Positions 1-16,781 of a stretch of DNA of 64,000 nucleotides are shown one piece after another. The notes beneath the pieces are model-generated. The model searched no databases. It was not told the DNA's origin and saw only the letters and a program-made list of their open reading frames with translations. Made by a program: the position numbers and the translations under genes. Source of the DNA: Clostridia bacterium (GTDB lineage: Bacteria > Bacillota > Clostridia > TANB77 > CAG-508); contig JAFWNC010000007.1 of the NCBI GenBank assembly GCA_017510525.1, positions 25,858 through 89,857 of the forward strand. The letters run 5' to 3'. How positions within the stretch are numbered: the first letter of the stretch is position 1; each line of letters starts with the position of its first letter.

Positions 1-1605
1 TTTTTAGATAATGTTAAAAGAGATATTTTGAATAATATAACAGCTTTTACTCAAGATGAATCTCAAGAACAAAAACAAAATGGACAGCCGAATCCTCAAA
101 TGCAAAGACAGCCTGAACCATGGCTAAATTATAGGGTTAATTTATTTGTTGATAACAGTCATTTAGAGGGTGCTCCTGTTATAATGGATTCAAATTATAG
201 CTATCTAAATATTTTTGGTAGATTAGAATATGAAAACCAATTTGGTATGTTTAAAACTGATTACACAATGCTTAAACCAGGTTTATTACAAAAGGCAAAT
301 GGCGGTTATATTATTTTCCAAGCTAAAGATTTGCTTACAAATCCAATGTGTTATGAAGCTTTGAAAAAGGTTATGAAAGTTAAAGAGATAAGTATTGAAA
401 ATGCCGCTGAACAGCGTTCTTCAATGATTTTGGTTTCTTTAAAACCTGAGCCTATTCCATTAGATTTAAAAGTTATTTTAATTGGAAATTCAGATATTTA
501 TCATACTTTATTATCATTAGATGATGATTTTAGAAAATTATTTAAGATTAAAGTTGAATTTGAAGAAGATGCACCTCGTTCTCAAGAGAATATTCAAAAG
601 TTAGCTAAGTTTGTAAAAAGCTTTTGCAGTCAAGAAGAACTTTTGGATTTAGATAAAGAGGCAATGGCTAAAGTTGTTGAATTTGCTTCAAAATTGGCTG
701 GAGATAAAGAAAAGCTATCTACTCAGTTTAGTGAAATTGGTGAAATAATTGGAGAGGCTTCAACATGGGCTAGAATTGATAAATCTAAGTTGATAACAAA
801 GGAATATGTTCAAAAAGCTTTAGATGAAAGAATTGAAAGAATAAAGAAATATGATACTAAATATATTCAAATGATAAAAGAAGGTTCTTTACTTATTAAT
901 ACTTCTGGATATAGAACAGGTCAAATCAATGGATTAACTGTTATTACAATTGGAGACTATTCTTTTGGAAAGCCATCTAAAATTACTGCCAACACTTATA
1001 TGGGACAAGAGGGAATTATAAATGTTGAGCGTGAAGTTGAGATGTCTGGTTCTACTCACTCAAAGGGCGTTATGATTTTAACTGGATATTTGGGTGAGCT
1101 ATTTGCTCAAGAGATGCCATTATCTTTAACAGCTAGTGTTTGTTTTGAACAGTTATATGGTGGCGTTGATGGAGATAGTGCATCAAGTACAGAAGTTTAT
1201 GCGATTTTATCTAGTTTGTCTGAAATTCCTATTAGTCAGTCAATTGCTGTTACTGGTTCAATAAACCAAAAAGGTGAGATACAGCCTATTGGTGGTGTTA
1301 ATGAAAAGATAGAAGGATTTTATCAGATCTGTAAGATGAGAGGATTAACTGGTGAACATGGTGTAATTATACCAGTTCAAAATGTAAGAAATCTTCATTT
1401 AAATGATGATGTTATTAAATCTGTAAAGGATGGATTGTTTCATATTTATGCTATTAGTAGTGTTGAGGAAGGAATTGAGATTTTAACTGGTGTTCCTGCT
1501 GGTAAGAGAGATAAATATGGAAATTTCCCTGCTGGAACAATTAATTATTTGGCTTATGAGAAATTAAAGAAATATGCAAAAAATGCAGAGAAGAATAAGA
1601 ATTAA
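1..1605 (+). CDS. Lon-like ATP-dependent protease (LonB/COG1067 type), 5' end cut by window edge
   Basis: Frame 1 is open from base 1; the track start at 28 is only the first TTG. C-terminal Lon S16 proteolytic domain with GDSAS serine motif and a downstream QKGEIQPIGGVNEKIEGF region. Confidence 0.8.
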   Translation, partial: FLDNVKRDILNNITAFTQDESQEQKQNGQPNPQMQRQPEPWLNYRVNLFVDNSHLEGAPVIMDSNYSYLNIFGRLEYENQFGMFKTDYTMLKPGLLQKANGGYIIFQAKDLLTNPMCYEALKKVMKVKEISIENAAEQRSSMILVSLKPEPIPLDLKVILIGNSDIYHTLLSLDDDFRKLFKIKVEFEEDAPRSQENIQKLAKFVKSFCSQEELLDLDKEAMAKVVEFASKLAGDKEKLSTQFSEIGEIIGEASTWARIDKSKLITKEYVQKALDERIERIKKYDTKYIQMIKEGSLLINTSGYRTGQINGLTVITIGDYSFGKPSKITANTYMGQEGIINVEREVEMSGSTHSKGVMILTGYLGELFAQEMPLSLTASVCFEQLYGGVDGDSASSTEVYAILSSLSEIPISQSIAVTGSINQKGEIQPIGGVNEKIEGFYQICKMRGLTGEHGVIIPVQNVRNLHLNDDVIKSVKDGLFHIYAISSVEEGIEILTGVPAGKRDKYGNFPAGTINYLAYEKLKKYAKNAEKNKN

Positions 1606-1616
1606 GGAGATAATAA

Positions 1617-2867
1617 ATGGGAGAAAAAAAGACAATCGATATAAGCTTAAAAATTATATATATTATTGTTCTACTCCTTTTAGCTTTAATTTTTAGTATT
1701 ATATATTTAATATTTAATAATTCAAATAATGTTAAAAAAACTAATACTAATTCAGGTGAAAAATACGTAAGTAACAATAATTATAGTAATACTAATAATA
1801 ATCAACCAGTAGAAGATAATGAAATAAATGAGTTAGAAAATTGGAAAACAAGTTATAATGGAGAGGAATATTATATTATTAATCATGATTATTCAGGTGA
1901 ATATGACTTGGGAATCATTGAAGTTAATAATGAAATAAATAATGATTTTGATAAAAAAGAAGTTATGTCATATGAGCAATATGAAGAATATTGTAATAAG
2001 TATGGTTTAAATAAAAAATATAAGGATAAAGCTAAAAATTATATTGTGTTTTCATATAGATTTGATTATGTTGGAGAAATATCGGCTAGATTGGGAGGAG
2101 TTGAATTCCCTAGAGTAGATACTGTTAATTTATATATTTGGGATCAACATAAAATGCTAACAGATAAAAAAAGACGAGCTTATTATATAATTATTCCAAC
2201 AGATAAAAATGTTGGGAAAGTCAATGTTTTTCCTGCTTATACAAAAGAACAATATACAGCATTAACACGAAGAGTAGTTGATTATGAGGATGATATTGAT
2301 ATAGCTGTTCCGACACTAAAACCAATAATATATTTTTATCCTGAAAAAGAAACAAAAATAAATGTAAAATTAGGGTATCCAAATAAAATAATGGTATCAT
2401 ATCCTAACTATAAATCAGAAGGTTGGGATGTAATCGCATATCCAAATGGAAATCTAAAATATATTGAGAATGGAAGAAATTTGTATTCATTATATTATGA
2501 AAGCGATTCAGTATACGATTTTAAGGTTGAAAAAGATGGATTTATAGTAAAAAGAGATGAAATAGAAAAATTCTTAGAAGAAAAATTAGAAATTTTAGGA
2601 TTAAATGAAAAAGAGTCAGAAGAATTTATTATATACTGGCTTCCAAAGTTACAAGAGCATGAATATAATTATATTAGATTTGCTACAATGGATGAAATTA
2701 ATAAAAACATGCCAATAGATTTTTCTGTAACACCAGATACGTTAATAAGAGTTCTTATGACCTATAAAGGATTAGATACTCCTATTGAGGTTAAAGAACA
2801 AAAATTGAATAAGGTATATAGAAAGGGATTTGTAATTGTAGAATGGGGTGGAACTGAGATAAGATAA
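1617..2867 (+). CDS. hypothetical protein with N-terminal membrane anchor
   Basis: 416-aa ORF starting 12 nt after the Lon-like gene, with RBS aaggag upstream. One N-terminal TM helix and an Asn-rich linker. No family recognised. Confidence 0.6.
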   Translation: MGEKKTIDISLKIIYIIVLLLLALIFSIIYLIFNNSNNVKKTNTNSGEKYVSNNNYSNTNNNQPVEDNEINELENWKTSYNGEEYYIINHDYSGEYDLGIIEVNNEINNDFDKKEVMSYEQYEEYCNKYGLNKKYKDKAKNYIVFSYRFDYVGEISARLGGVEFPRVDTVNLYIWDQHKMLTDKKRRAYYIIIPTDKNVGKVNVFPAYTKEQYTALTRRVVDYEDDIDIAVPTLKPIIYFYPEKETKINVKLGYPNKIMVSYPNYKSEGWDVIAYPNGNLKYIENGRNLYSLYYESDSVYDFKVEKDGFIVKRDEIEKFLEEKLEILGLNEKESEEFIIYWLPKLQEHEYNYIRFATMDEINKNMPIDFSVTPDTLIRVLMTYKGLDTPIEVKEQKLNKVYRKGFVIVEWGGTEIR

Positions 2868-2913
2868 TATGTGCAGATTTTTCTGTCCCCATTGCACATA
2901 ATTAAAAATATTA

Positions 2914-2934
2914 GGGTAAGGCTTGTTCTTACCC
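2914..2934 (+). repeat. degenerate REP-like hairpin (TTAGGGTAAGGCTTGTTCTTACCC)
   Basis: Stem GGGTAAG/CTTACCC with loop GCTTGT. Resembles the GTAGGGG-hairpin family seen elsewhere in the window. Followed by TTTT, so it may also terminate the upstream operon. Confidence 0.4.
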
Positions 2935-2978
2935 TTTTGTTGTTGTATAATAATAAGAATAATAAATAAAATAGGGAG

Positions 2979-5495
2979 ATGTTTATGGATTTTTTTAATG
3001 AGATTTATCTTGATAAGGAAAAAGATATTGTTGTTAAATTGTTTAAATCTGGTGAAGATGAAATGGCTTATATTGTTGAGACTCCTAATCATAATTCCGG
3101 AAATTTAATTTCTAATTTGGCTAAGGTTTGTGGCGCTTCAACTGTTAAAGATGAAAATGATATGAAGATTATTAAAGGAGTTATTCCGGCAAGTTTAAAT
3201 GGCGATAATGAAGAGGTATATATTTTAAGACTTGGTGGAATTAAGATTGCTAATATTTATAATGATGGAAGAATTGAGAACAAGGCTACTATTTCATCTC
3301 TTATGAAGACTTTTATGTCTCAAACAAAGGATTATAAATTTGGTGTTGATAAAACAATTATTAAATCTTATTTACTTAAAAAGGAAAAATTTAAAACAGA
3401 TTTACATACTCATATGAATGCTATTTTGTCTACTGACTGTTTAGTTGCGCTTGGAATCAGTCATCAAATTAAATATCCGTTATATTATATAAAGAAGTTA
3501 GATTTGAAATTATCAGAATCTCAGGAAAAAGAAATTTATAAGCAAAGAAAAAAAGTTGAAAAAGAGTTCAAAAATTCTTCTTTAATGGGCAAATACTTAA
3601 CTCGAAAAATAGATGATAATACTTTTATTAATTTTGCGGATTTAATTTTAAACAATTTGGATAATTGTAAGGAAAACATTAAAAAAATAAGAAAGAGTTT
3701 GGCGATAATAAAAGATGGTCAGGCTGTTTTTTCTAACCTAGAAAAAGCATATATTTATAGATATGTTTTTTCTAAGGGAGTTGAGAGTGATAAAACTGAG
3801 AGAATTGAATTAGAAAAAGATAAAATTGATAAAATCCCTCAAAAAGATATAAAAAACATTGTTTTTAAAATGTTGGATGATAAGAAAAGAGGAAGTATTT
3901 ATAGAAAAAATACTTTAAGACAAAATAAGTTGTTATGGGTAGCTAGGGAGTATCAAAAACAGGGTATTTATTATGTTGAAATTTCTGAAACAACTTTGGC
4001 TAAAAAGGGTCTTCCTGCAATTGAATTCCTTGAAGAGGTTCATGAGATAATGCCTAAAATAGAGGAAGAAACTGGAGTTAGAATTAGATTTTTAGTTGGA
4101 TTTAGAAGAGTTCCTCTTTTTATAGTTAATGACAATACTCAAGGAAGTGGATATTTAAGAGAGGCTTTGAGTGTTTTAAAAACAATTAGTAAAGATCCTT
4201 ATGTTGTTGGTAGTGATTTTATTGGTGAGGAAATAAATGATATTCGTGAATTAAAGCCTGTTATAGAAGAAATTGTTCAATATGTTGAAAATGAAGATAA
4301 TGGCTATACTATTAAGATGCATGCTGGTGAAAATGATGGAATAAAAGATAATGTTTATTATTCTATTAAGTGCGTTAAAGACTCGCTTAAAAAATCTAAG
4401 ACTATGCCTAAAATTCGTATTGGACATGGTTTATATACTCCTGAGCTTTCTTCAAAAGCTGGGCAAGATCTTATAAAATTAATCAAAGATTCTAATGCTA
4501 TTTTAGAGTTTCAAATTACTTCAAATGTTAAATTAAATAATTTAAGTAGACTTGATAAACATCCTTTAAAAAAATATTTGTCTGAAGGAATAAGATGTGT
4601 TCAAGGAACAGATGGATGCGGAATGTATGGAACTGATGCTATTGAAGAACAATTGGCATTAAAAAATATTTTAGGATTAACTAGTGAAGAATTTGAAAAA
4701 ATGAGAAATGTTGAAAATGAGGTTATAGAAAACAGTAGAGCTTATTTTAAGGAAAAATCTAAGAAATTTGAGAAGTTTTTAAATGGAAGAAGTTTGAGAG
4801 ATGGGTTACTTGAAGAGGAATATAAAGTAATTGATGAGGATTTAAAGAGGAATGTTAAGCTTAGATTAACTGAAAAAATTCCTGTTGAAAATGAGCTTGG
4901 AGATATGATTAAAGAATTACCTACTGATAAGATTCCGATTATTGTTGCTGGTGGTAGTTTTAATGGACAACATAACCAAACTATTGCTTATGAAGAAGAA
5001 ATCAGTATTTTGAGAAATTTAATTTTAAATATTGATGAGAAGAAGGCGTTTTTTGTTATTGGACATAAAATTGAGGGGTATGAAAAAGAGGTTCTTGATT
5101 TGTGTAAGAAGTTTAATAATAAGATTGAGGTATATTCTATTATTCCTAATATGGTTGAGAAGGATGTTTTAGAGAGATTAAAACAAAGTAGTCTTGTTGG
5201 GATAAGGCCTGCTATTGATAGTGATGATTTTGGAATTTATAAGAGTTTTAATTATGAAGTTTTTGAAAGAAGGGATTCAATAGTTATTGCTTTAGATGGT
5301 AATTCTCCTGTTTATAATTTGATTCAAGAAGCTAAGAATGGTAAGGGAAAGGCTAGAATTTATATTAATAATAAGAATAGGAATTTACGTAATAAGGCTA
5401 ATACTTTAGAGGGATATGTTACTGTTTTTGAGATTGAAGATGAGGTTTGGAGGGTGATTCTAAAAGATAAGCCCGAGATTGCTAAGAAAGAATAG
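2979..5495 (+). CDS. adenosine/AMP-deaminase-fold protein fused to a C-terminal Rossmann-like SLOG/LOG-type domain
   Basis: 838-aa ORF. Metal-dependent deaminase motifs appear in the canonical order: DLHTHMNA (HxH), MHAGEND (HAGE), RIGHGLY, ITSNVKLN, QGTDGCGMYG. The C-terminal ~200 aa (IPIIVAGGSF...FFVIGHK...VIALDGNSPVYNLIQEA) looks like a LOG/DprA (SLOG) nucleotide-binding fold. Confidence 0.7.
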   Translation: MFMDFFNEIYLDKEKDIVVKLFKSGEDEMAYIVETPNHNSGNLISNLAKVCGASTVKDENDMKIIKGVIPASLNGDNEEVYILRLGGIKIANIYNDGRIENKATISSLMKTFMSQTKDYKFGVDKTIIKSYLLKKEKFKTDLHTHMNAILSTDCLVALGISHQIKYPLYYIKKLDLKLSESQEKEIYKQRKKVEKEFKNSSLMGKYLTRKIDDNTFINFADLILNNLDNCKENIKKIRKSLAIIKDGQAVFSNLEKAYIYRYVFSKGVESDKTERIELEKDKIDKIPQKDIKNIVFKMLDDKKRGSIYRKNTLRQNKLLWVAREYQKQGIYYVEISETTLAKKGLPAIEFLEEVHEIMPKIEEETGVRIRFLVGFRRVPLFIVNDNTQGSGYLREALSVLKTISKDPYVVGSDFIGEEINDIRELKPVIEEIVQYVENEDNGYTIKMHAGENDGIKDNVYYSIKCVKDSLKKSKTMPKIRIGHGLYTPELSSKAGQDLIKLIKDSNAILEFQITSNVKLNNLSRLDKHPLKKYLSEGIRCVQGTDGCGMYGTDAIEEQLALKNILGLTSEEFEKMRNVENEVIENSRAYFKEKSKKFEKFLNGRSLRDGLLEEEYKVIDEDLKRNVKLRLTEKIPVENELGDMIKELPTDKIPIIVAGGSFNGQHNQTIAYEEEISILRNLILNIDEKKAFFVIGHKIEGYEKEVLDLCKKFNNKIEVYSIIPNMVEKDVLERLKQSSLVGIRPAIDSDDFGIYKSFNYEVFERRDSIVIALDGNSPVYNLIQEAKNGKGKARIYINNKNRNLRNKANTLEGYVTVFEIEDEVWRVILKDKPEIAKKE

Positions 5496-5504
5496 TAGTA
5501 TATG

Positions 5505-5699
5505 ATGATTACTTAAAAAGTCTTTTTGTTCTTTGTTGCCCTCGACTGGGTAGATTCTATTTTTTTGCTTCAGCTTCCCCAATGGAGGCTGTAACTCACT
5601 ATCGTTCGAACAGCCCTCATCGGTCCCCACAACGCTTCGCTGTAAAAATAGAACTACCCGCACGGGCTTTAGGTTCTTATTTACTTTTTAAGTAATCAT
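5505..5699 (+). other. 195-nt GC-enriched imperfect palindromic element, candidate structured RNA
   Basis: Outer inverted repeat ATGATTACTTAAAAAGT (5505-5521) pairs with ACTTTTTAAGTAATCAT (5683-5699). Inner arms pair with bulges, e.g. GGGTAGATTCTATTTTT with AAAAATAGAACTACCC. Internal hairpin CAGCTTCC-CCAAT-GGAGGCTG. The mismatches are G-T type on the + strand. Confidence 0.35.
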
Positions 5700-5709
5700 T
5701 AGTGTTCTC

Positions 5710-5738
5710 TTGACATTATTGGGGGTTAATGGTAATTT
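5710..5738 (+). promoter_or_regulatory. sigma-A-like promoter candidate (TTGACA-17-TAATTT)
   Basis: TTGACA at 5710-5715, 17-nt spacer, TAATTT at 5733-5738. Lies upstream of the small ORF and the transketolase genes. Confidence 0.4.
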
Positions 5739-5770
5739 ATTTATGGGGCTATACCTTTTAGGAGGTATAT

Positions 5771-6007
5771 ATGAATAATGACGAAATTTTGAAAAGAATT
5801 TTTGAAAAGGTTTCTAATATTGAGGATTATTTGGAGGAAATTAATCAAAATATTGGAATTTTATTAGAAGAAAATGAGGATAATAAATTAGAACATTTAA
5901 TGTTAATGACAAGATTTGAAAATTTGGCAGATTTTATAAAAGACAAATATAATGTTGTACTTGAAGAAAATGAAGAATACCTAACGAAAGATTGTAGGGG
6001 CGACTAG
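5771..6007 (+). CDS. small acidic hypothetical protein
   Basis: 78-aa ORF with RBS aggagg 6 nt upstream. No family recognised. Confidence 0.5.
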   Translation: MNNDEILKRIFEKVSNIEDYLEEINQNIGILLEENEDNKLEHLMLMTRFENLADFIKDKYNVVLEENEEYLTKDCRGD

Positions 6008-6023
6008 AAAAAAGGAGGTTTTT

Positions 6024-6851
6024 ATGAGGGTTAGTGATGATGATATTAGAGATTTAGAGAGGGTTGCGGTTGAGGTCCGTAAAAGTGTTGTTGAAGAGGT
6101 TTATTTAGCTAAATCTGGTCATCCTGGTGGTGCTCTTTCTTGTGTTGATATTTTGGTTTCTTTATATTTTAATCAGATGAATATTAATCCCGAAAAACCT
6201 GATGATGAGAATAGAGATAGATTTATTCTGTCTAAAGGCCATGCGTGTGCTGCTTTATATGCTGTTTTGGCTCATAGAGGTTATTTTGATAAAGAGTTGT
6301 TGAAGGGTTTTAGAAAGCTAGGTAGTCCTCTTCAGGGACATCCAGATAAAAATAAGCTACCTGGAATTGATATGAGTTCTGGTTCTTTAGGACAAGGCTT
6401 ATCAATTGCAAATGGAATGGCATTATCTTCAAAGCTTGATAGTAAAGGTTTTAGAGTTTATTGTTTAGTAGGTGATGGCGAGATTCAGGAAGGACAGTTT
6501 TGGGAAGCGGCTATGAGTTCAAGTCATTATAAGTTAGATAATTTATGTTTGATTGTTGATAAAAACAATTTACAGATTGATGGGAGAACTAAGGATGTTA
6601 TGAATGTTGATCCTCTTAACAAAAAGCTTGAAAGCTTTGGTTTTGAAGTTTTTGAGGTCGATGGAAATAACATTGATGAAGTTATTAGTGTTCTTCAAAA
6701 GGTTAAAACAATTAAGGGAAAGCCATGTGCAATTATTGCTAATACAGTAAAAGGTAAAGGTGTTTCTTATATGGAAAATAAGGAAGAATGGCATGGGAAG
6801 GCTCCAAATGAAGAGGAGTTTAATAAAGCAATTGAAGAATTAAAATTTTAA
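6024..6851 (+). CDS. tkt: transketolase, N-terminal (thiamine-diphosphate-binding) subunit
   Basis: GHPGGALS and GDGEIQEG TPP-binding motifs. Size (275 aa) is typical of split clostridial transketolase. Confidence 0.9.
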   Translation: MRVSDDDIRDLERVAVEVRKSVVEEVYLAKSGHPGGALSCVDILVSLYFNQMNINPEKPDDENRDRFILSKGHACAALYAVLAHRGYFDKELLKGFRKLGSPLQGHPDKNKLPGIDMSSGSLGQGLSIANGMALSSKLDSKGFRVYCLVGDGEIQEGQFWEAAMSSSHYKLDNLCLIVDKNNLQIDGRTKDVMNVDPLNKKLESFGFEVFEVDGNNIDEVISVLQKVKTIKGKPCAIIANTVKGKGVSYMENKEEWHGKAPNEEEFNKAIEELKF

Positions 6852-6852
6852 A

Positions 6853-6959
6853 ATTAAGCACAATATAGTAATTTTTCAGCTTAGGCTGCGGACGCTCTGC
6901 TATTTTTGACTATGTCAAAAACACCTTGCCACGCTTCAAAATTCTATATTGTGCTTAAT
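6853..6959 (+). repeat. ~107-nt structured intergenic repeat, copy 1 (between the two transketolase subunit genes)
   Basis: Core ATATAGTAATTTTTCAGCTTAGGCTGCGGACGCTCTGCTATTTTTGACTATGTCAAAAACACCTTGCCACGCTTCAAAATTCTATAT. Flanked by a copy-specific inverted repeat ATTAAGCACA/TGTGCTTAAT. Confidence 0.8.
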
Positions 6960-6985
6960 AATAATATTAAATAGGAGAGAAGAGT

Positions 6986-7918
6986 ATGGATATTGATAAT
7001 AAAAAAGCCACAAGACAAAGCTATGGTGAGGCTTTAGTAGAACTTGGAAAAAAGAACAATAATATTGTTGTTTTAGATGCTGATTTATCTACTGCAACTA
7101 AAAGCAATATGTTTAAAAAAGAATTTCCTGAAAGATTTTTTGATATGGGAATTTCTGAACAAGATATGATGGGGACTGCTGCTGGAATGGCAAGCTGTGG
7201 TAAAATTCCTTTTGCTAGTACATTTGCTGTTTTTGCTGCAGGAAGAAGCTATGATCAAATTAGAAATTCAATTTGCTACCCTAAGTTAAATGTAAAGATA
7301 TGTGGTAGCCATAGCGGAGTTACTGTAGGTGAAGATGGAGCAACTCATCAAATGCTTGAAGATATTAGTATTATGAAAGCTCTTCCTAATATGACAGTAT
7401 TTTCTGTTTCTGATGATATTGAAACTAAATGGGCTGTTTCTGAAGCTGCTAAGATTAATGGACCTGTTTATATAAGAACTTGTAGGGCTAAAACTCCAGT
7501 TATTTATAATGAAAATCAAGAGTTTGAACTTGGAAAGGCTGTTAAGATTGGTGATGGAACAGATGCAACAATTTTTGCAACAGGTGTTACTGTTTCTGAA
7601 GCTGTTTTGGCTAAAGAAGAATTAGAGAAACAAGGAATTAATGTTAGAGTTGTAGATATTCATACTATTAAGCCTATTGATAGTGAAATGATTGTAAAAT
7701 GCGCGAAAGAGACTAAGAAATTGATTTCTATTGAAGATCATAATGTTATTGGTGGATTAGGTAGTTCAATTGCTGATGTTTTAGCTGAAGAGTATCCACA
7801 AAAGCTTATAAAAATGGGGATAAATGATAGGTTTGGTGAGTCTGGAACTAGTGGAGAGCTTATGGAAAAATTTAATCTATTAAGTGTTGATATTATTAAT
7901 GTTGTAAAATCTAATTAA
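6986..7918 (+). CDS. tkt: transketolase, C-terminal (pyrimidine-binding) subunit
   Basis: 310 aa. GISEQDMMGTAAG and EDGATHQ motifs. Confidence 0.9.
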   Translation: MDIDNKKATRQSYGEALVELGKKNNNIVVLDADLSTATKSNMFKKEFPERFFDMGISEQDMMGTAAGMASCGKIPFASTFAVFAAGRSYDQIRNSICYPKLNVKICGSHSGVTVGEDGATHQMLEDISIMKALPNMTVFSVSDDIETKWAVSEAAKINGPVYIRTCRAKTPVIYNENQEFELGKAVKIGDGTDATIFATGVTVSEAVLAKEELEKQGINVRVVDIHTIKPIDSEMIVKCAKETKKLISIEDHNVIGGLGSSIADVLAEEYPQKLIKMGINDRFGESGTSGELMEKFNLLSVDIINVVKSN

Positions 7919-7920
7919 TA

Positions 7921-8031
7921 TATAGAATTGAAATATAGTAATTTTTCAGCTTAGGCTGCGGACGCTCTGCTATTTTTGACTACGTCAAAAACACCTTGCC
8001 ACGCTTCAAAATTATATATTTCAATTCTATA
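7921..8031 (+). repeat. ~107-nt structured intergenic repeat, copy 2
   Basis: Same core as 6853-6959 (central loop TAC instead of TAT). Outer inverted repeat differs: TATAGAATTGAA/TTCAATTCTATA. Confidence 0.8.
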
Positions 8032-8063
8032 ATATTAAGCAAAATTAAAAGTGAGAAATTATC

Positions 8064-8097
8064 GAGGGGCATTATCAGCAATATGCCTCTTTTTTTT
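8064..8097 (+). terminator. rho-independent terminator of the transketolase operon
   Basis: GAGGGGCAT ... ATGCCTC stem followed by T8. Confidence 0.65.
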
Positions 8098-8253
8098 ACA
8101 AAAAAATATTTTTTTCAAATTTTTCTATTGCATTTATTTTTGTTTATTGGTATCATTTTAATGAATAGGTATTTTTGTTTTAAGGATATTTTAAGTTTTG
8201 ATGAATTAAAATATAATCAGACAAAAAATTTATGCTAGATTAAGGAGCTAATA

Positions 8254-8937
8254 ATGATTGAGTTTAAAAATGTAAGTAAAGTTTATGAAACTGGTACTGA
8301 GGCTGTTCATAAGGCTAACTTTAAAATTGATAAAGGTGAATTTGTTTTCTTAGTTGGAACTTCTGGTTCAGGAAAATCTACTCTTATTAAGCTTATTCTT
8401 AAAGAAGAAGAACCTACTAGAGGAAGTATTATTATTAATGGAAAAGATACTACTTTTTTAAAGCCTAAGAGAGTGCCTTTTTTACGTAGAAGTATGGGAG
8501 TTGTTTTCCAAGATTTCAGACTATTACCTGATAAAACTGTTTATGAAAATGTTGCTTTTGCTATGTATATTGTTAAGGCTACTCCTAGACATATTAGAAG
8601 ACAAGTTCCTATGGTTCTTTCTCTTGTTGGACTTAGTGCTAAAGCAAAAATGTATCCTAATGAATTGTCAGGTGGTGAGCAACAAAGAGTTGCTTTGGCT
8701 AGAGCTTTAGTTAATAATCCTTCTATGATTATTGCTGATGAGCCTACAGGAAACCTTGATCCAGAAACTGCTTGGGATATTATGAATTTGCTTAATGATA
8801 TTAATTTAAGAGGAACAACAGTTGTAGTTGCTACACATGCTAAAGATATAGTTGATACTATGAAAAAAAGAGTAATTCAAATTGATAAAGGTCATATCGT
8901 TAGAGACGATATGAAGGGTGGTTATGGTGAGATATAA
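8254..8937 (+). CDS. ftsE: cell-division ABC ATPase FtsE
   Basis: Walker A GTSGSGKST, signature LSGGEQQRV, Walker B IIADEPTG. Followed by ftsX. Confidence 0.9.
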   Translation: MIEFKNVSKVYETGTEAVHKANFKIDKGEFVFLVGTSGSGKSTLIKLILKEEEPTRGSIIINGKDTTFLKPKRVPFLRRSMGVVFQDFRLLPDKTVYENVAFAMYIVKATPRHIRRQVPMVLSLVGLSAKAKMYPNELSGGEQQRVALARALVNNPSMIIADEPTGNLDPETAWDIMNLLNDINLRGTTVVVATHAKDIVDTMKKRVIQIDKGHIVRDDMKGGYGEI

Positions 8938-9844
8938 TATTTTGAGTTATCACATTGGTGAAGGAATAAAAAATGTTTTTAAAAACAAAAAGTCAACTGT
9001 TGCTTCTATTGGTATTATGGTTGCTACAATGTTTATGTTTGGTATATTTTTCTTAATAGGAGAGAATATTAATAACATAATGAATACTATTGAAGAAGAC
9101 CAAGGTATTCAGGTTTTTATTATAAATGAAGCTACTGAAGACGAAGTTGAAGATGTTAGATATTTAATTAGCACAATTGATGGTGTTGCAGAAGCTAAAA
9201 TATTTACTAAACAGCAAGCTCTTGATCAAATGAAAGACAGACTTAAGGATAATAAAGATTTATTAAAGGGTTATGAAGGCGATAATAATATTTTTGCTGA
9301 TTCAGTTGTTGTTAAATTAGACAATCTTGAAAAAAGTGCTGAAGTTCAAGAACAAATTAATAAAATAGAAATAAATGGTCAAAAATACATAAAGAAGATT
9401 ACAAGTAGTGATGATACTATTAACGCTCTTATTAGAATTGCTAATGGTATTAGATTGGTTACTGGTATTATATTAGTTTTATTAATTGCGATATCTGTAT
9501 TTATTATTTCAAATACAATAAAACTTACTGTTCATGCTAGAAGAAAAGAAATTTCAATTATGAAATATGTTGGTGCTACTAATTCATTTATACGTTCACC
9601 TTTTATAGTTGAGGGTGTTATTATAGGAATTATTTCTGGATTAATTACAATGCTTATAATTGCTGGTGGCTATCATTTAGTTTCTATAAAAGTAATAAAG
9701 ATGTTTGCTAATTTGAACTTAGGTGTTACTTTATTACAATTTAATGATATGGCATTATTAATTTCAATTGTATATTTGATTTTAGGAATTGGTATTGGTG
9801 TTGTAGGAAGTGTTATATCTATGAGAAAATACCTAGAAGTTTAA
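8918..9844 (+). CDS. ftsX: cell-division permease-like protein FtsX
   Basis: Overlaps the ftsE stop. One N-terminal TM, an extracellular domain and three C-terminal TMs. Start uncertain (GTG 8918 or ATG 8924). Confidence 0.85.
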   Translation: MVMVRYNILSYHIGEGIKNVFKNKKSTVASIGIMVATMFMFGIFFLIGENINNIMNTIEEDQGIQVFIINEATEDEVEDVRYLISTIDGVAEAKIFTKQQALDQMKDRLKDNKDLLKGYEGDNNIFADSVVVKLDNLEKSAEVQEQINKIEINGQKYIKKITSSDDTINALIRIANGIRLVTGIILVLLIAISVFIISNTIKLTVHARRKEISIMKYVGATNSFIRSPFIVEGVIIGIISGLITMLIIAGGYHLVSIKVIKMFANLNLGVTLLQFNDMALLISIVYLILGIGIGVVGSVISMRKYLEV

Positions 9845-15344: not shown

Positions 15345-15728
15345 ATGATATTTTCAACAAATAAAGAAAAAGGAAATACTTCATTAGGTGTTGCAATTGC
15401 TTATTATTCTTCGAACGGGTATACAGTTTCAATTCCATTAAATGATACACAAGATTATGATTTGATAGTTGATAAAGATAATAAACTTAAGAGAATTCAA
15501 GTAAAGGGTTCAAGTTTTAAAGATAAACGTGGAAAGTATCAGGTTGCTTTAAAGAGTTGTGGAGGAACAAAGGGAAAAACTTATAAAACAGTAAAGGATA
15601 CAGATATAGAAGAACTTTTTATTTTATTAGATAGTATGGAAATATATATAATACCTAAAGAAATAATCAATAATAATTCTACAATTAATATATGTGAAAA
15701 ATATAGTAAATATAAAGTGACATTGTAA
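15345..15728 (+). CDS. PD-(D/E)XK-type endonuclease-like protein (group I intron-associated endonuclease family-like)
   Basis: 127 aa with strong RBS aaggaggg. Pattern GNTSLGVAIAYYSSNGYTVSIP..DYDLIVDKDNKLKRIQVKG matches the small PD-(D/E)XK family that, as I recall, includes I-Ssp6803I. Confidence 0.55.
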   Translation: MIFSTNKEKGNTSLGVAIAYYSSNGYTVSIPLNDTQDYDLIVDKDNKLKRIQVKGSSFKDKRGKYQVALKSCGGTKGKTYKTVKDTDIEELFILLDSMEIYIIPKEIINNNSTINICEKYSKYKVTL

Positions 15729-15890: not shown

Positions 15891-16781
15891 ATGGGAACAT
15901 TAAAGCGGAATATCTTAGAGTACTTTTATGGCGAAAAAAAGGTTGATCTTGTATCAGCAATTGCGTCATATATTAAAGATATTGGTCCAAGTCAGGAAGC
16001 AACATTTTGGAAACTCTATTTAAAAAGTGCTCTTGATGAAAAGTATCATGACAGATTAAGAGGATTATTCAATTCCCTTCATGACTTTGTTAAGAAAAAT
16101 GTTGTCGACTATGGTTTTGAAATTGAAGCTAGAGGTAAATCGTTTAAGTCAACTCTTGAAAAGAAAATGAAAGTACAGAGCGAGAAGAAGTCGTTGGATA
16201 CGATTAAAGATTTTGTTGGATTTAGAATTGTAATCTATTCTGGCAAATCTGAAATTGAGCAGATTTATGATGCTCATCGTCTTGCAAAAATCTGTGTTGA
16301 TTTTTTCGAAGGTCAGGGGTATATTCCTTGTAAGGCTGACGATGTAAAAGAAACTGATGGCTTTGATAAAAACAAATGTAGTATCGATATTCCTGAAAAA
16401 GAAAAGGTAGAAGAGATATTAGGTGATTATTATGGTTTTTTTAAAAATTACAATTTAACACCTAAGGCAAATGGCTATCAGGCAATCCATGTTATTTTTA
16501 AAGATGATGAAGGTCGATATATCGAACTTCAGATCAGAACTTTAGAACAGGATGCACGTGCAGAAAATGATAGTTGCGAAGAAGAGAAATCAGTAAATGT
16601 AGATGTCGAAGACGAATATCTGGATGCTGGTCATGATGAATATAAGAAAAAATATAAAAAGATCTTTATTGATTATGATAGAGTAAATCTTATAGGATTC
16701 ATCAAAACCGGAAAAAAGATAAAAGACGTCGTTGGTTTCACAAAGGCATTATTGATCTACCATCGTACCAGAAAAAAATAA
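15891..16781 (+). CDS. RelA/SpoT-homologue nucleotidyltransferase (small alarmone synthetase / toxSAS-like)
   Basis: Synthetase motifs in order: RGKSFKSTLEKK, DFVGFRIVI, GYQAIHVIF, ELQIRTLEQ. 296 aa with extra N- and C-terminal regions. Visibly GC-richer codon usage than its neighbours. In-frame CGG at codon 6. Confidence 0.7.
   Translation: MGTLKRNILEYFYGEKKVDLVSAIASYIKDIGPSQEATFWKLYLKSALDEKYHDRLRGLFNSLHDFVKKNVVDYGFEIEARGKSFKSTLEKKMKVQSEKKSLDTIKDFVGFRIVIYSGKSEIEQIYDAHRLAKICVDFFEGQGYIPCKADDVKETDGFDKNKCSIDIPEKEKVEEILGDYYGFFKNYNLTPKANGYQAIHVIFKDDEGRYIELQIRTLEQDARAENDSCEEEKSVNVDVEDEYLDAGHDEYKKKYKKIFIDYDRVNLIGFIKTGKKIKDVVGFTKALLIYHRTRKK

Follow-up and report, generated by a model that had tools for sequence, protein, structure and literature searches.

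A three-part protein with an adenosine-deaminase-type barrel and a SLOG-like C terminus, and its possible role in IMP supply in gut Clostridia

The draft genome of a Clostridia bacterium (GCA_017510525.1) carries, within a stretch of 64,000 nucleotides (nt) that is here called the window (contig JAFWNC010000007.1, C19:25858-89857 of genome G000), an open reading frame (ORF) of 838 amino acids (aa) in which a catalytic domain of the adenosine deaminase (ADA) superfamily is fused to a C-terminal domain modelled as a SLOG fold and preceded by a further N-terminal domain. The gene is a real feature and belongs to a well-conserved but uncharacterised enzyme family of three-part proteins in gut bacteria. 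It is fairly probable that the fusion is a SLOG-regulated adenine-nucleotide deaminase, of the type that acts on adenosine monophosphate (AMP), and that it supplies inosine monophosphate (IMP) for guanine nucleotides in purine-auxotrophic gut Clostridia.

In the predicted route, the ADA barrel (residues 136-595) would deaminate a nucleotide, most likely AMP, giving IMP and ammonia, with adenosine, ADP and ATP as the other candidate substrates; the IMP would be fed to IMP dehydrogenase (IMPDH) and GMP synthase, so that guanine nucleotides would be made from adenine nucleotides. The SLOG domain would serve as a non-catalytic nucleotide-binding module that tunes the enzyme allosterically, with a nucleotide as its presumed ligand. 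Eukaryotic AMP deaminase (AMPD) is tuned by ATP and GTP. The setting would be small-genome gut and rumen Clostridia without de novo purine synthesis, and the route would be as in Cryptosporidium: a published account of that organism (PMC2919388) describes a route through AMP deaminase, IMPDH and GMP synthase, with no de novo synthesis and no HXGPRT. By analogy, the fusion may work like the AMP deaminase of such a streamlined route, sharing with eukaryotic AMPD the proposed role of a large allosteric IMP maker of the ADA superfamily that feeds IMPDH (the AMP activity of the fusion is a prediction). The likeness would be one of function: AMPD has no SLOG domain, and kinship of the fusion with the AMPD family is not supported by sequence. 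Enzymes with the A_deaminase domain (PF00962) can act on nucleotides, because one of them, KomA, prefers deoxyadenosine monophosphate (dAMP), a deamination described in a preprint (bioRxiv 10.1101/2024.12.20.629578).

An earlier reading of the bare letters (the sequence-only reading) had reported an 838-aa protein and quoted a series of motifs, and each of these is present in the translation: DLHTH (H143, H145), HAGE (448-451), GHG (482-484) and TDG (544-546) in the barrel, and IIVAGGSF (654-661), GH (695-696) and ALDGNSPVYNLIQEA (771-785) in the C terminus. Translation more likely starts at Met3 (position 2985), because a GGGAG box lies right against the first ATG and the alignments of homologues begin at residue 3-5.

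Domain architecture of the fusion protein

By profile and by catalytic residues, the protein is a member of the ADA superfamily, as the sequence-only reading had held. The Pfam model PF00962 spans residues 321-593 (E 5.7e-20, 72.1 bits against a cut-off of 27), and a family-profile search of PDB sequences placed ADA chains on top (6ii7 at E 7.5e-21). The metal ligands and catalytic residues (H143, H145, H448, E451, H483 and D545) are all present and invariant in an alignment of 51 homologues with identity down to 21%, and because of this invariance the deaminase domain looks active. Canonical ADA (Add/ADA1; PDB 6n9m, 3ewc, 1add) has the same TIM-barrel metallo-deaminase fold with four metal ligands and a catalytic Glu and His, but it is a single domain of about 330-370 aa, whereas the 838-aa fusion has N-terminal and C-terminal SLOG domains in addition, together with a long helical insertion of roughly 160 aa (about residues 160-320) after its HxH strand. 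Canonical Add was considered as an identity for the protein and rejected, since the equivalog cut-offs are unmet and the second Asp is missing. In NCBIfam only adenosine-deaminase equivalogs match, and all nine ADA models score far under their cut-offs (best TIGR01430, 57.9 bits against 216.55). In ADA the purine is contacted by the second Asp of the TDD motif; the fusion has G546 instead of this Asp after the metal-binding one, and Gly stands there in at least 90% of the 51 family members.

The C terminus is, by modelled fold, a member of the SLOG superfamily, which is said to have been defined by Burroughs and colleagues in 2015. The C-terminal 243 residues were modelled on a 57-row alignment, giving a confident model (mean predicted local distance difference test score, pLDDT, 93.3) in which a helical linker is followed by a seven-stranded beta-alpha Rossmannoid domain. 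In an exhaustive structural comparison with 48,161 PDB representatives (VIA), the top 26 rows for this model are all SLOG-superfamily structures (Z 9.2-13.0), and unrelated Rossmann folds reach 8.8 at most. The list is headed by the LOG-like 1weh (Z 13.0 over 155 aa), the Moco carrier 2iz5 (12.8) and TRPM2 (7aov, 12.7 over 186 aa), with DprA (4ljk, 12.7), 5ajt (11.5), PpnN (3bq9, 11.4) and YgdH (9us2, 11.4) as further matches and ThsA (7uxt, 9.8), ShosA (8zva, 9.8) and YpsA (2nx2, 9.2) among the lower SLOG rows. Foldseek gave 32 matches at E ≤ 1e-3, with DprA first (E 3.4e-5), then TRPM4, TRPM8, TRPM2 and LOG; a LOG with AMP bound (5zbl) is among them. The proposal of a SLOG/LOG-like C terminus is thus upheld by the model and its comparisons. 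The fold is visible from structure only: no SLOG family was found for the protein itself in Pfam (E ≤ 1), and no SLOG chain appeared in the family-profile search of PDB sequences.

Within the superfamily, the TRPM-type LSDAT clade is favoured, both by sub-threshold matches and by longer structural alignments. PF18171 (LSDAT_prok, a TRPM-type SLOG) matches 7 of 52 distant full-length homologues under its cut-off (best 23.4 against 25.4 bits), and TRPM structures align over 186-195 aa as against 155-168 aa for LOG structures. Known sensors of this kind (TRPM2 MHR1/2, the SLOG of ThsA, LSDAT) would share the Rossmannoid fold of the modelled C terminus, but none of them is fused to a deaminase. 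The prominence of LOG enzymes among the best structures (1weh, 5ajt, 3bq9 and 9us2 in VIA, 5zbl in Foldseek) raises the idea of a bifunctional enzyme, whose C terminus would be a LOG-type nucleotide N-glycosidase, like PpnN or LOG, working in series with the deaminase. We consider this very improbable: the LOG family PF03641 matches neither the protein (E ≤ 1) nor the 52 homologues (E ≤ 0.01), the sub-threshold SLOG matches point only to the non-catalytic TRPM-type LSDAT, and the longer alignments are those with TRPM. The LOG catalytic motif is PGGxGTxxE, and the family consensus at this place, GGxxxVxDxIQxA, has no conserved counterpart of its acidic residue. Residues P653, G658, G700, G774 and K806 are nearly invariant in the 51-sequence alignment and lie, in the model, where strands 1, 2 and 5 end and the helices that follow begin; they probably line the usual ligand crevice of such folds.

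The N-terminal domain, too, is confidently folded in its model (pLDDT 91.3), which is beta-rich with two helices, and it carries a conserved motif, TPNHxxGNLIxN, at residues 35-46. It has no solved relative: VIA returned no chain at Z ≥ 5 (the best, Z 4.3 over 63 aa, is kinase N-lobe-like), Foldseek against the PDB gave a best E of 0.062, and the ESM Atlas gave no usable match. In its modelled form the domain thus appears to lack a match among solved folds, and a missing match is no proof of a new fold. Separate searches with the three parts, which the sequence-only reading had recommended, had mixed outcomes, with a SLOG domain recognised by fold, a deaminase recognised by profile and an N-terminal part for which no fold match was found.

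Additional domains occur in some of the 52 distant homologues (NUDIX in 3, a nucleoside 2-deoxyribosyltransferase-like domain in 1), and such additions are compatible with nucleotide metabolism or signalling.

Purine genes and the supply of IMP

By its phyletic pattern, the gene is linked to the provision of IMP from which guanine nucleotides are made. De novo synthesis itself appears to be missing from the order to which the window's genome belongs: purF scored over its cut-off in none of 41 genomes of the order as against 13 of 14 control genomes (the order's hits are GlmS-like amidotransferase domains), and purH was not found in any of the five genomes searched for it. The window's genome (1.49 Mb, 96% complete) was searched further, and no purF, purH, purA, Hpt, Apt, PNP-family (PNP_UDP_1) gene or PfkB kinase was found in its 30 contigs, nor any Pribosyltran domain over the cut-off or dNK kinase. 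Among the routes searched, inosine is left without a way to IMP in this genome, because Hpt, PNP, PfkB kinase and phosphoribosyltransferase (PRTase) were all not found. Nucleotide-level deamination is the only IMP route for which a candidate gene was found there. The ATP/ADP translocase (PF03219) had no match in the window's genome and none in the control genomes either, so that search is uninformative.

In the window's genus (g1) the fusion is present in 7 of 21 genomes and in the window's genome (8 of 22), and it is the sole ADA-fold gene. A full-length IMPDH is found in all 8 of these genomes and in only one other of the 22; its identity is secured in relatives by NF005493 (847 bits against a cut-off of 585), and the copy in the window's genome matches PF00478 at 371 bits and has a CBS domain. 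The gene guaA has the same distribution as IMPDH in the genus, except in the window's genome: there, contig C14 runs out 48 nt after guaB, and it is just past guaB that guaA is found in relatives. The gene purA is found mostly in genomes of the genus outside this set.

An order-wide sample of 301 genomes with completeness of at least 90% extends the comparison (fusion called at E ≤ 1e-20, IMPDH at E ≤ 1e-50). The fusion was found in 70 of them, mostly in genus g16 (54 of 82 genomes), with g13 (3 of 6) and g27 (1 of 6) among the others. Fusion and IMPDH occur together in 51 genomes, the fusion alone in 19, IMPDH alone in 38 and neither in 193 (odds ratio 13.6), and this raw association is largely a between-genus effect. 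A sharper pattern concerns Hpt. If there is no de novo synthesis, the source of IMP is either Hpt or a deaminase, so genomes with IMPDH should have the fusion or Hpt; the prediction, made before Hpt was searched for, was that IMPDH genomes without the fusion need Hpt and that those with it need not. One or the other is present in 87 of the 89 IMPDH genomes (the exceptions are G245 and G248). Hpt was found in 36 of the 38 IMPDH genomes without the fusion (these 36 come from 10 genera), as against 21 of the 51 with it, leaving 30 of these 51 with IMPDH and the fusion and no Hpt. The same holds within genus g16, where Hpt is present in 12 of 14 IMPDH genomes without the fusion and in 14 of 39 with it (Fisher p 0.0018, a value overstated by kinship).

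At a few loci the link is also physical. G225 has the fusion, a cytidylate-kinase-like gene and guaB in a row on the same strand, separated by 10 and 127 nt, and in G049, G256 and G294 the fusion lies 1.5-5 kilobases (kb) from guaB/guaA; in G294 an ITPase/XTPase gene (PF01931, 83.6 bits) stands between them. The sequence-only reading had set purine-salvage operons as a uniform home of the homologues against its own idea of a sensor-effector pair. What was found is not uniform, as these four loci are the only ones beside guaB/guaA.

Several observations weigh against a role in supplying IMP from AMP. First, the sequence of the barrel is nearest to nucleoside ADAs (Plasmodium, Salmonella Add, E about 1e-20) and not to AMP deaminases: in the PDB profile search the AMP deaminase 9nte (E 6.6e-10) ranks after the nucleoside enzymes. 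Gly at 546 in place of the second Asp may also bear on the choice of substrate. Second, the association of fusion and IMPDH is weak within g16 (both 39, fusion only 15, IMPDH only 14, neither 14; odds ratio 2.6, p 0.055), and the four guaB-linked loci all belong to one clade. Third, 19 of the 70 fusion genomes have no IMPDH, so that IMP supply for GMP cannot be the only role or else genes have been missed; 13 of the 19 also lack Hpt, and IMP would have no onward route there among those searched. Fourth, the genomes are related drafts, and counts of them overstate their independence; the window's genome is itself a 30-contig draft, in which 'not found' differs from absent. For AMP itself, too, no source was found in that genome in the searches for PRTase, PfkB and dNK kinases. 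Finally, the window copy shares 72% identity with one from g16 as against 56-60% with those of its own genus, whereas the IMPDH of the same genome has no such skew (79-80% to g1, 77-79% to g16). The fusion gene may thus move laterally, which would fit an accessory gene and leaves its role undecided. A joint transfer of fusion and guaB was considered and rejected, as the IMPDH is about equally close to g1 and g16.

The kinship of the barrel with nucleoside ADAs is what would be expected of an enzyme that turns (deoxy)adenosine into inosine, for salvage or as a source of ribose, with extra domains that serve assembly or regulation. NCBI sources do name close homologues 'adenosine deaminase', genus g1 has no canonical add, which the fusion could replace, and PNP-family genes are present in 4 of 5 genomes searched. 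We still regard a nucleoside deaminase as unlikely. The 30 genomes that combine IMPDH and the fusion without Hpt speak against it, as does the window's genome, where no PNP, Hpt or PfkB kinase would carry inosine on to IMP; the shortfall against TIGR01430 and the Gly in place of a conserved ADA Asp point the same way, and a simple salvage enzyme would hardly be expected to have three domains and 838 aa.

If the fusion is the AMP-type deaminase that we favour, it would fill a gap in the metabolic reconstruction of many uncultured Clostridia of gut and rumen, a group of at least 671 species genomes; it would explain how they make guanine nucleotides and predict which purines they need in culture. 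No earlier case of a deaminase regulated by a SLOG domain would be known. A more ambitious version can be put forward only tentatively, in which the family would be the bacterial counterpart of eukaryotic AMPD, gated by its SLOG domain and with an N terminus of new fold: it would run AMP through IMP to GMP in Clostridia without Hpt, and the SLOG domain would read GTP or (p)ppGpp, linking the stringent response to the balance of adenine and guanine nucleotides. AMP deaminase is, to our knowledge, usually regarded as an enzyme of eukaryotes, and a phrase search of the literature found no paper on a bacterial or prokaryotic one.

Distribution and comparison with defence systems

The family is large. 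A word-indexed protein search scored 7,998 proteins, 5,529 of them at E ≤ 0.001, and the 120 best of these 5,529 are 772-843 aa long, 63-82% identical and all matched by PF00962. An exhaustive search of representatives gave 816 clusters at E ≤ 0.001, of which 136 reach E ≤ 1e-30. A search for related loci, built on a 19-sequence alignment and run on contigs of one genome per species, found at least 671 relatives among 697 pattern matches, and the 80 loci kept from these all belong to uncultured Clostridia of the gut, rumen or caecum. IMG/VR yielded 30 pattern matches without a relative among them, phage records gave no homologue, and plasmid records hold canonical add only, covering at most 30% of the query.

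The sequence-only reading had proposed the logic of a sensor joined to an effector, by analogy with deaminases of phage defence. The architecture stands, an ADA fold with a C-terminal SLOG domain, and literature searches (SLOG with adenosine deaminase, LSDAT) agree with the earlier statement that no characterised fusion of this kind is known, as no paper describing one was found. The immune part of the idea found no support, with no defence gene among the annotated neighbours and no homologue found in phage, viral or plasmid records. In its strong form it would make the protein a stand-alone stress or anti-phage effector, a single-gene counterpart of Cad1 or RdrB, whose deaminase makes ITP or dITP from ATP or dATP once its SLOG domain has sensed a signalling nucleotide such as an ADP-ribose derivative. 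There are points in its favour. The only defence model matched is CARF_ADA of PADLOC (E 1.7e-10), SLOG is the sensor in ThsA, which the model resembles (Z 9.8), the gene is patchy within genera (8/22 in g1, 54/82 in g16, 3/6 in g13), and the closeness of the window copy to g16 hints at lateral exchange. Genes of the nucleotide pool also occur nearby, namely a dGTPase-like HD gene in g1 and small alarmone synthetases at 4 of the 80 loci, and NUDIX domains are found in 3 of the 52 homologues. Against these stand the missing viral and phage homologues, the plasmid records with canonical add only, the spread of the family through a single gut lineage (at least 671 species genomes), and the complementarity with Hpt, which is not expected of a defence gene. 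The neighbourhoods described below argue in the same direction, and we judge such an effector improbable.

Neighbouring genes were compared over the 80 loci by clustering up to four ORFs per side and annotating the 25 largest clusters. The commonest are an HtrA-type protease (29 occurrences), an M23 peptidase (17) and a TadA-like deaminase (16, in 15 of them immediately upstream), followed by YlxM (8), Ffh (8), PheT (7) and a YjbM-like alarmone synthetase (4). These are variable housekeeping neighbours (HtrA, M23 peptidase, TadA-like, Ffh/YlxM, PheST), and no cyclase, cas or recognised defence gene is found in the 25 largest clusters. The co-occurrence with cyclases, type III CRISPR or Lon proteases that the earlier reading suggested looking for is thus not seen in the annotated neighbours of the 80 loci. 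Of the window and the same-genus neighbourhoods, 74 of 121 ORFs were scanned, loci L014, L017 and L018 being omitted as they repeat the gene order of L013/L016. There is no cas gene among the 16 flanking ORFs of the window (1-20 kb), and PADLOC, run on these 16 and on 6 neighbours elsewhere, gave generic ATPase and coiled-coil matches together with the dGTPase-like gene. That gene adjoins the fusion at same-genus loci L015 and L016 (by Pfam), and ORFs of the same size take its place at L017 and L018 (by size, not by profile); it is convergent with the fusion, hence not co-operonic, and scores 111 bits against the 400-bit cut-off for anti-phage dGTPases.

Among known systems, the closest in plan is Cad1/CAAD of type III CRISPR (9c67, 9ebt, 9ubl), which likewise joins a Rossmann-type sensor and an ADA effector in one polypeptide and is reported to convert ATP to ITP. 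Cad1 chains were matched at E about 1e-5 in the PDB profile search. The sensor of Cad1 is an N-terminal CARF domain, whereas that of the fusion would be a C-terminal SLOG domain, and the fusion, unlike Cad1, is chromosomal, with no cas genes among its annotated neighbours and a housekeeping-like setting. The CARF_ADA profile aligns its positions 223-557 (of 605) with residues 97-562, leaving the CARF part (positions 1-222) unmatched. The beta-rich N-terminal domain, examined for CARF likeness, has no match at Z ≥ 5, and the profile is matched only in its ADA part, a result that cannot exclude a family. KomA (Kongming) and RdrB (RADAR) are likewise bacterial members of the ADA superfamily, and both are reported to act on adenine nucleotides and not on nucleosides; they belong to multi-gene defence operons (with KomBC and RdrA, respectively) and have no SLOG domain, and such partners are not seen beside the fusion. 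For surveys of phage defence this is a caution: 'sensor domain plus ADA' is by itself no defence signature.

Features of the locus and further observations

The features of the gene and of its surroundings in the window are collected in Table 1.

Table 1. Coordinates of the fusion gene, its domains and motifs, and nearby elements (positions in the window)
Feature	Position	Strand	Remarks
Whole ORF	2979..5495	+	838 aa, stop codon within span; no internal stop
N-terminal domain, residues 1-135	2979..3383	+	Confident model (pLDDT 91.3)
Adenosine/AMP-deaminase-fold catalytic domain, residues 136-595	3384..4763	+	PF00962, CARF_ADA profile, PDB profile search
HxH metal ligands H143, H145	3405..3413	+	Invariant, 51 sequences
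HAGE: metal ligand H448, catalytic E451	4320..4331	+	Invariant; aligned to Plasmodium ADA HAGE
GHG: H483	4422..4430	+	Invariant; aligned to ADA GHG
TDG: metal ligand D545, then G546	4608..4616	+	D545 invariant; aligned to Plasmodium ADA 'nsDDpgm'
Helical linker, residues 596-650	4764..4928	+	Helices 2-6, 11-28 and 41-44 of the C-terminal model; pLDDT 72-78 in part
SLOG domain (by modelled fold), residues 651-838	4929..5492	+	Seven-stranded Rossmannoid model and structure comparisons
416-aa ORF between LonB-like protease and fusion	1617-2867		N-terminal hydrophobic stretch
Short hairpin (ATGTGCA...TGCACAT) directly following the upstream ORF	2868-2898		About 90% identical copies at two sites, contigs C3 and C6
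Terminator-like hairpin between upstream ORF and fusion	2913..2935	+
Structured intergenic repeat, 207 nt	5500..5706	.	17-nt perfect terminal inverted repeats, GC-richer core
PD-(D/E)XK endonuclease-like ORF	15345-15728		PF11645
296-aa RelA/SpoT nucleotidyltransferase-domain protein	15891-16781		Adjoins the endonuclease-like ORF

Upstream of the fusion lie a gene for a LonB-like protease and one for the membrane-anchored 416-aa protein, which has no match in Pfam, NCBIfam or PADLOC; downstream are a split transketolase, FtsEX, M23 peptidases and CtpA. In none of the seven same-genus loci do the window's flanking genes adjoin the fusion. The sequence-only reading had noted that the gene follows a Lon-like protease operon. 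The upstream gene is indeed LonB-like, but Lon is outside the 25 commonest neighbour clusters of the 80 loci and is not a conserved neighbour. That reading had also described the upstream hairpins as REP-like (repetitive extragenic palindromic). The first of them recurs at two other sites, and the second resembles a terminator.

The structured element that was noted downstream is real and marks the 3' boundary of the gene. Its predicted folding is much more favourable than that of shuffled sequences (z -5.9), and it has no Rfam match; contigs C20 and C25 each have another copy (87% over 154 nt and 80% over 196 nt, respectively), and C5 has a partial one. As two more copies exist elsewhere in the genome, the element is not specific to this gene, and it could be a repeat resembling a miniature inverted-repeat transposable element (MITE) or a structured RNA. 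An Rfam scan of window positions 1-9000 found no credible riboswitch or other RNA, and eight homologous loci gave tRNAs only.

Some neighbouring genes of the window's genome and its relatives deserve mention in their own right. The 296-aa RelA/SpoT-domain protein of the window, weakly matched by the PADLOC candidate PDC-S33, may be a small alarmone synthetase (SAS) or a toxin-like SAS. On contig C14 of the window's genome, guaB is preceded, at a distance of about 1.4 kb, by a MazF/PemK-type toxin gene (L113 5974-6330). Directly beside guaB, three genomes encode a conserved protein of roughly 670 aa (L108 3961-5973, L109 3435-5435, L111 13180-15180), whose only match is a faint one to RelA_SpoT (23 bits).

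A distant paralogue subfamily (815-832 aa, about 31-34% identity) is in every case followed by a translationally coupled gene whose product has about 148 aa (L102 5344-5781, L103 10430-10885, L104 11020-11466, L107 1752-2195). The small protein is helical and without a Pfam match, its four copies being 42-46% identical among themselves. It is homologous to no part of the 838-aa protein. In the window's genome its homologues are found on C29 and, outside the window, at C19:152-580; neither of them adjoins an ADA gene.

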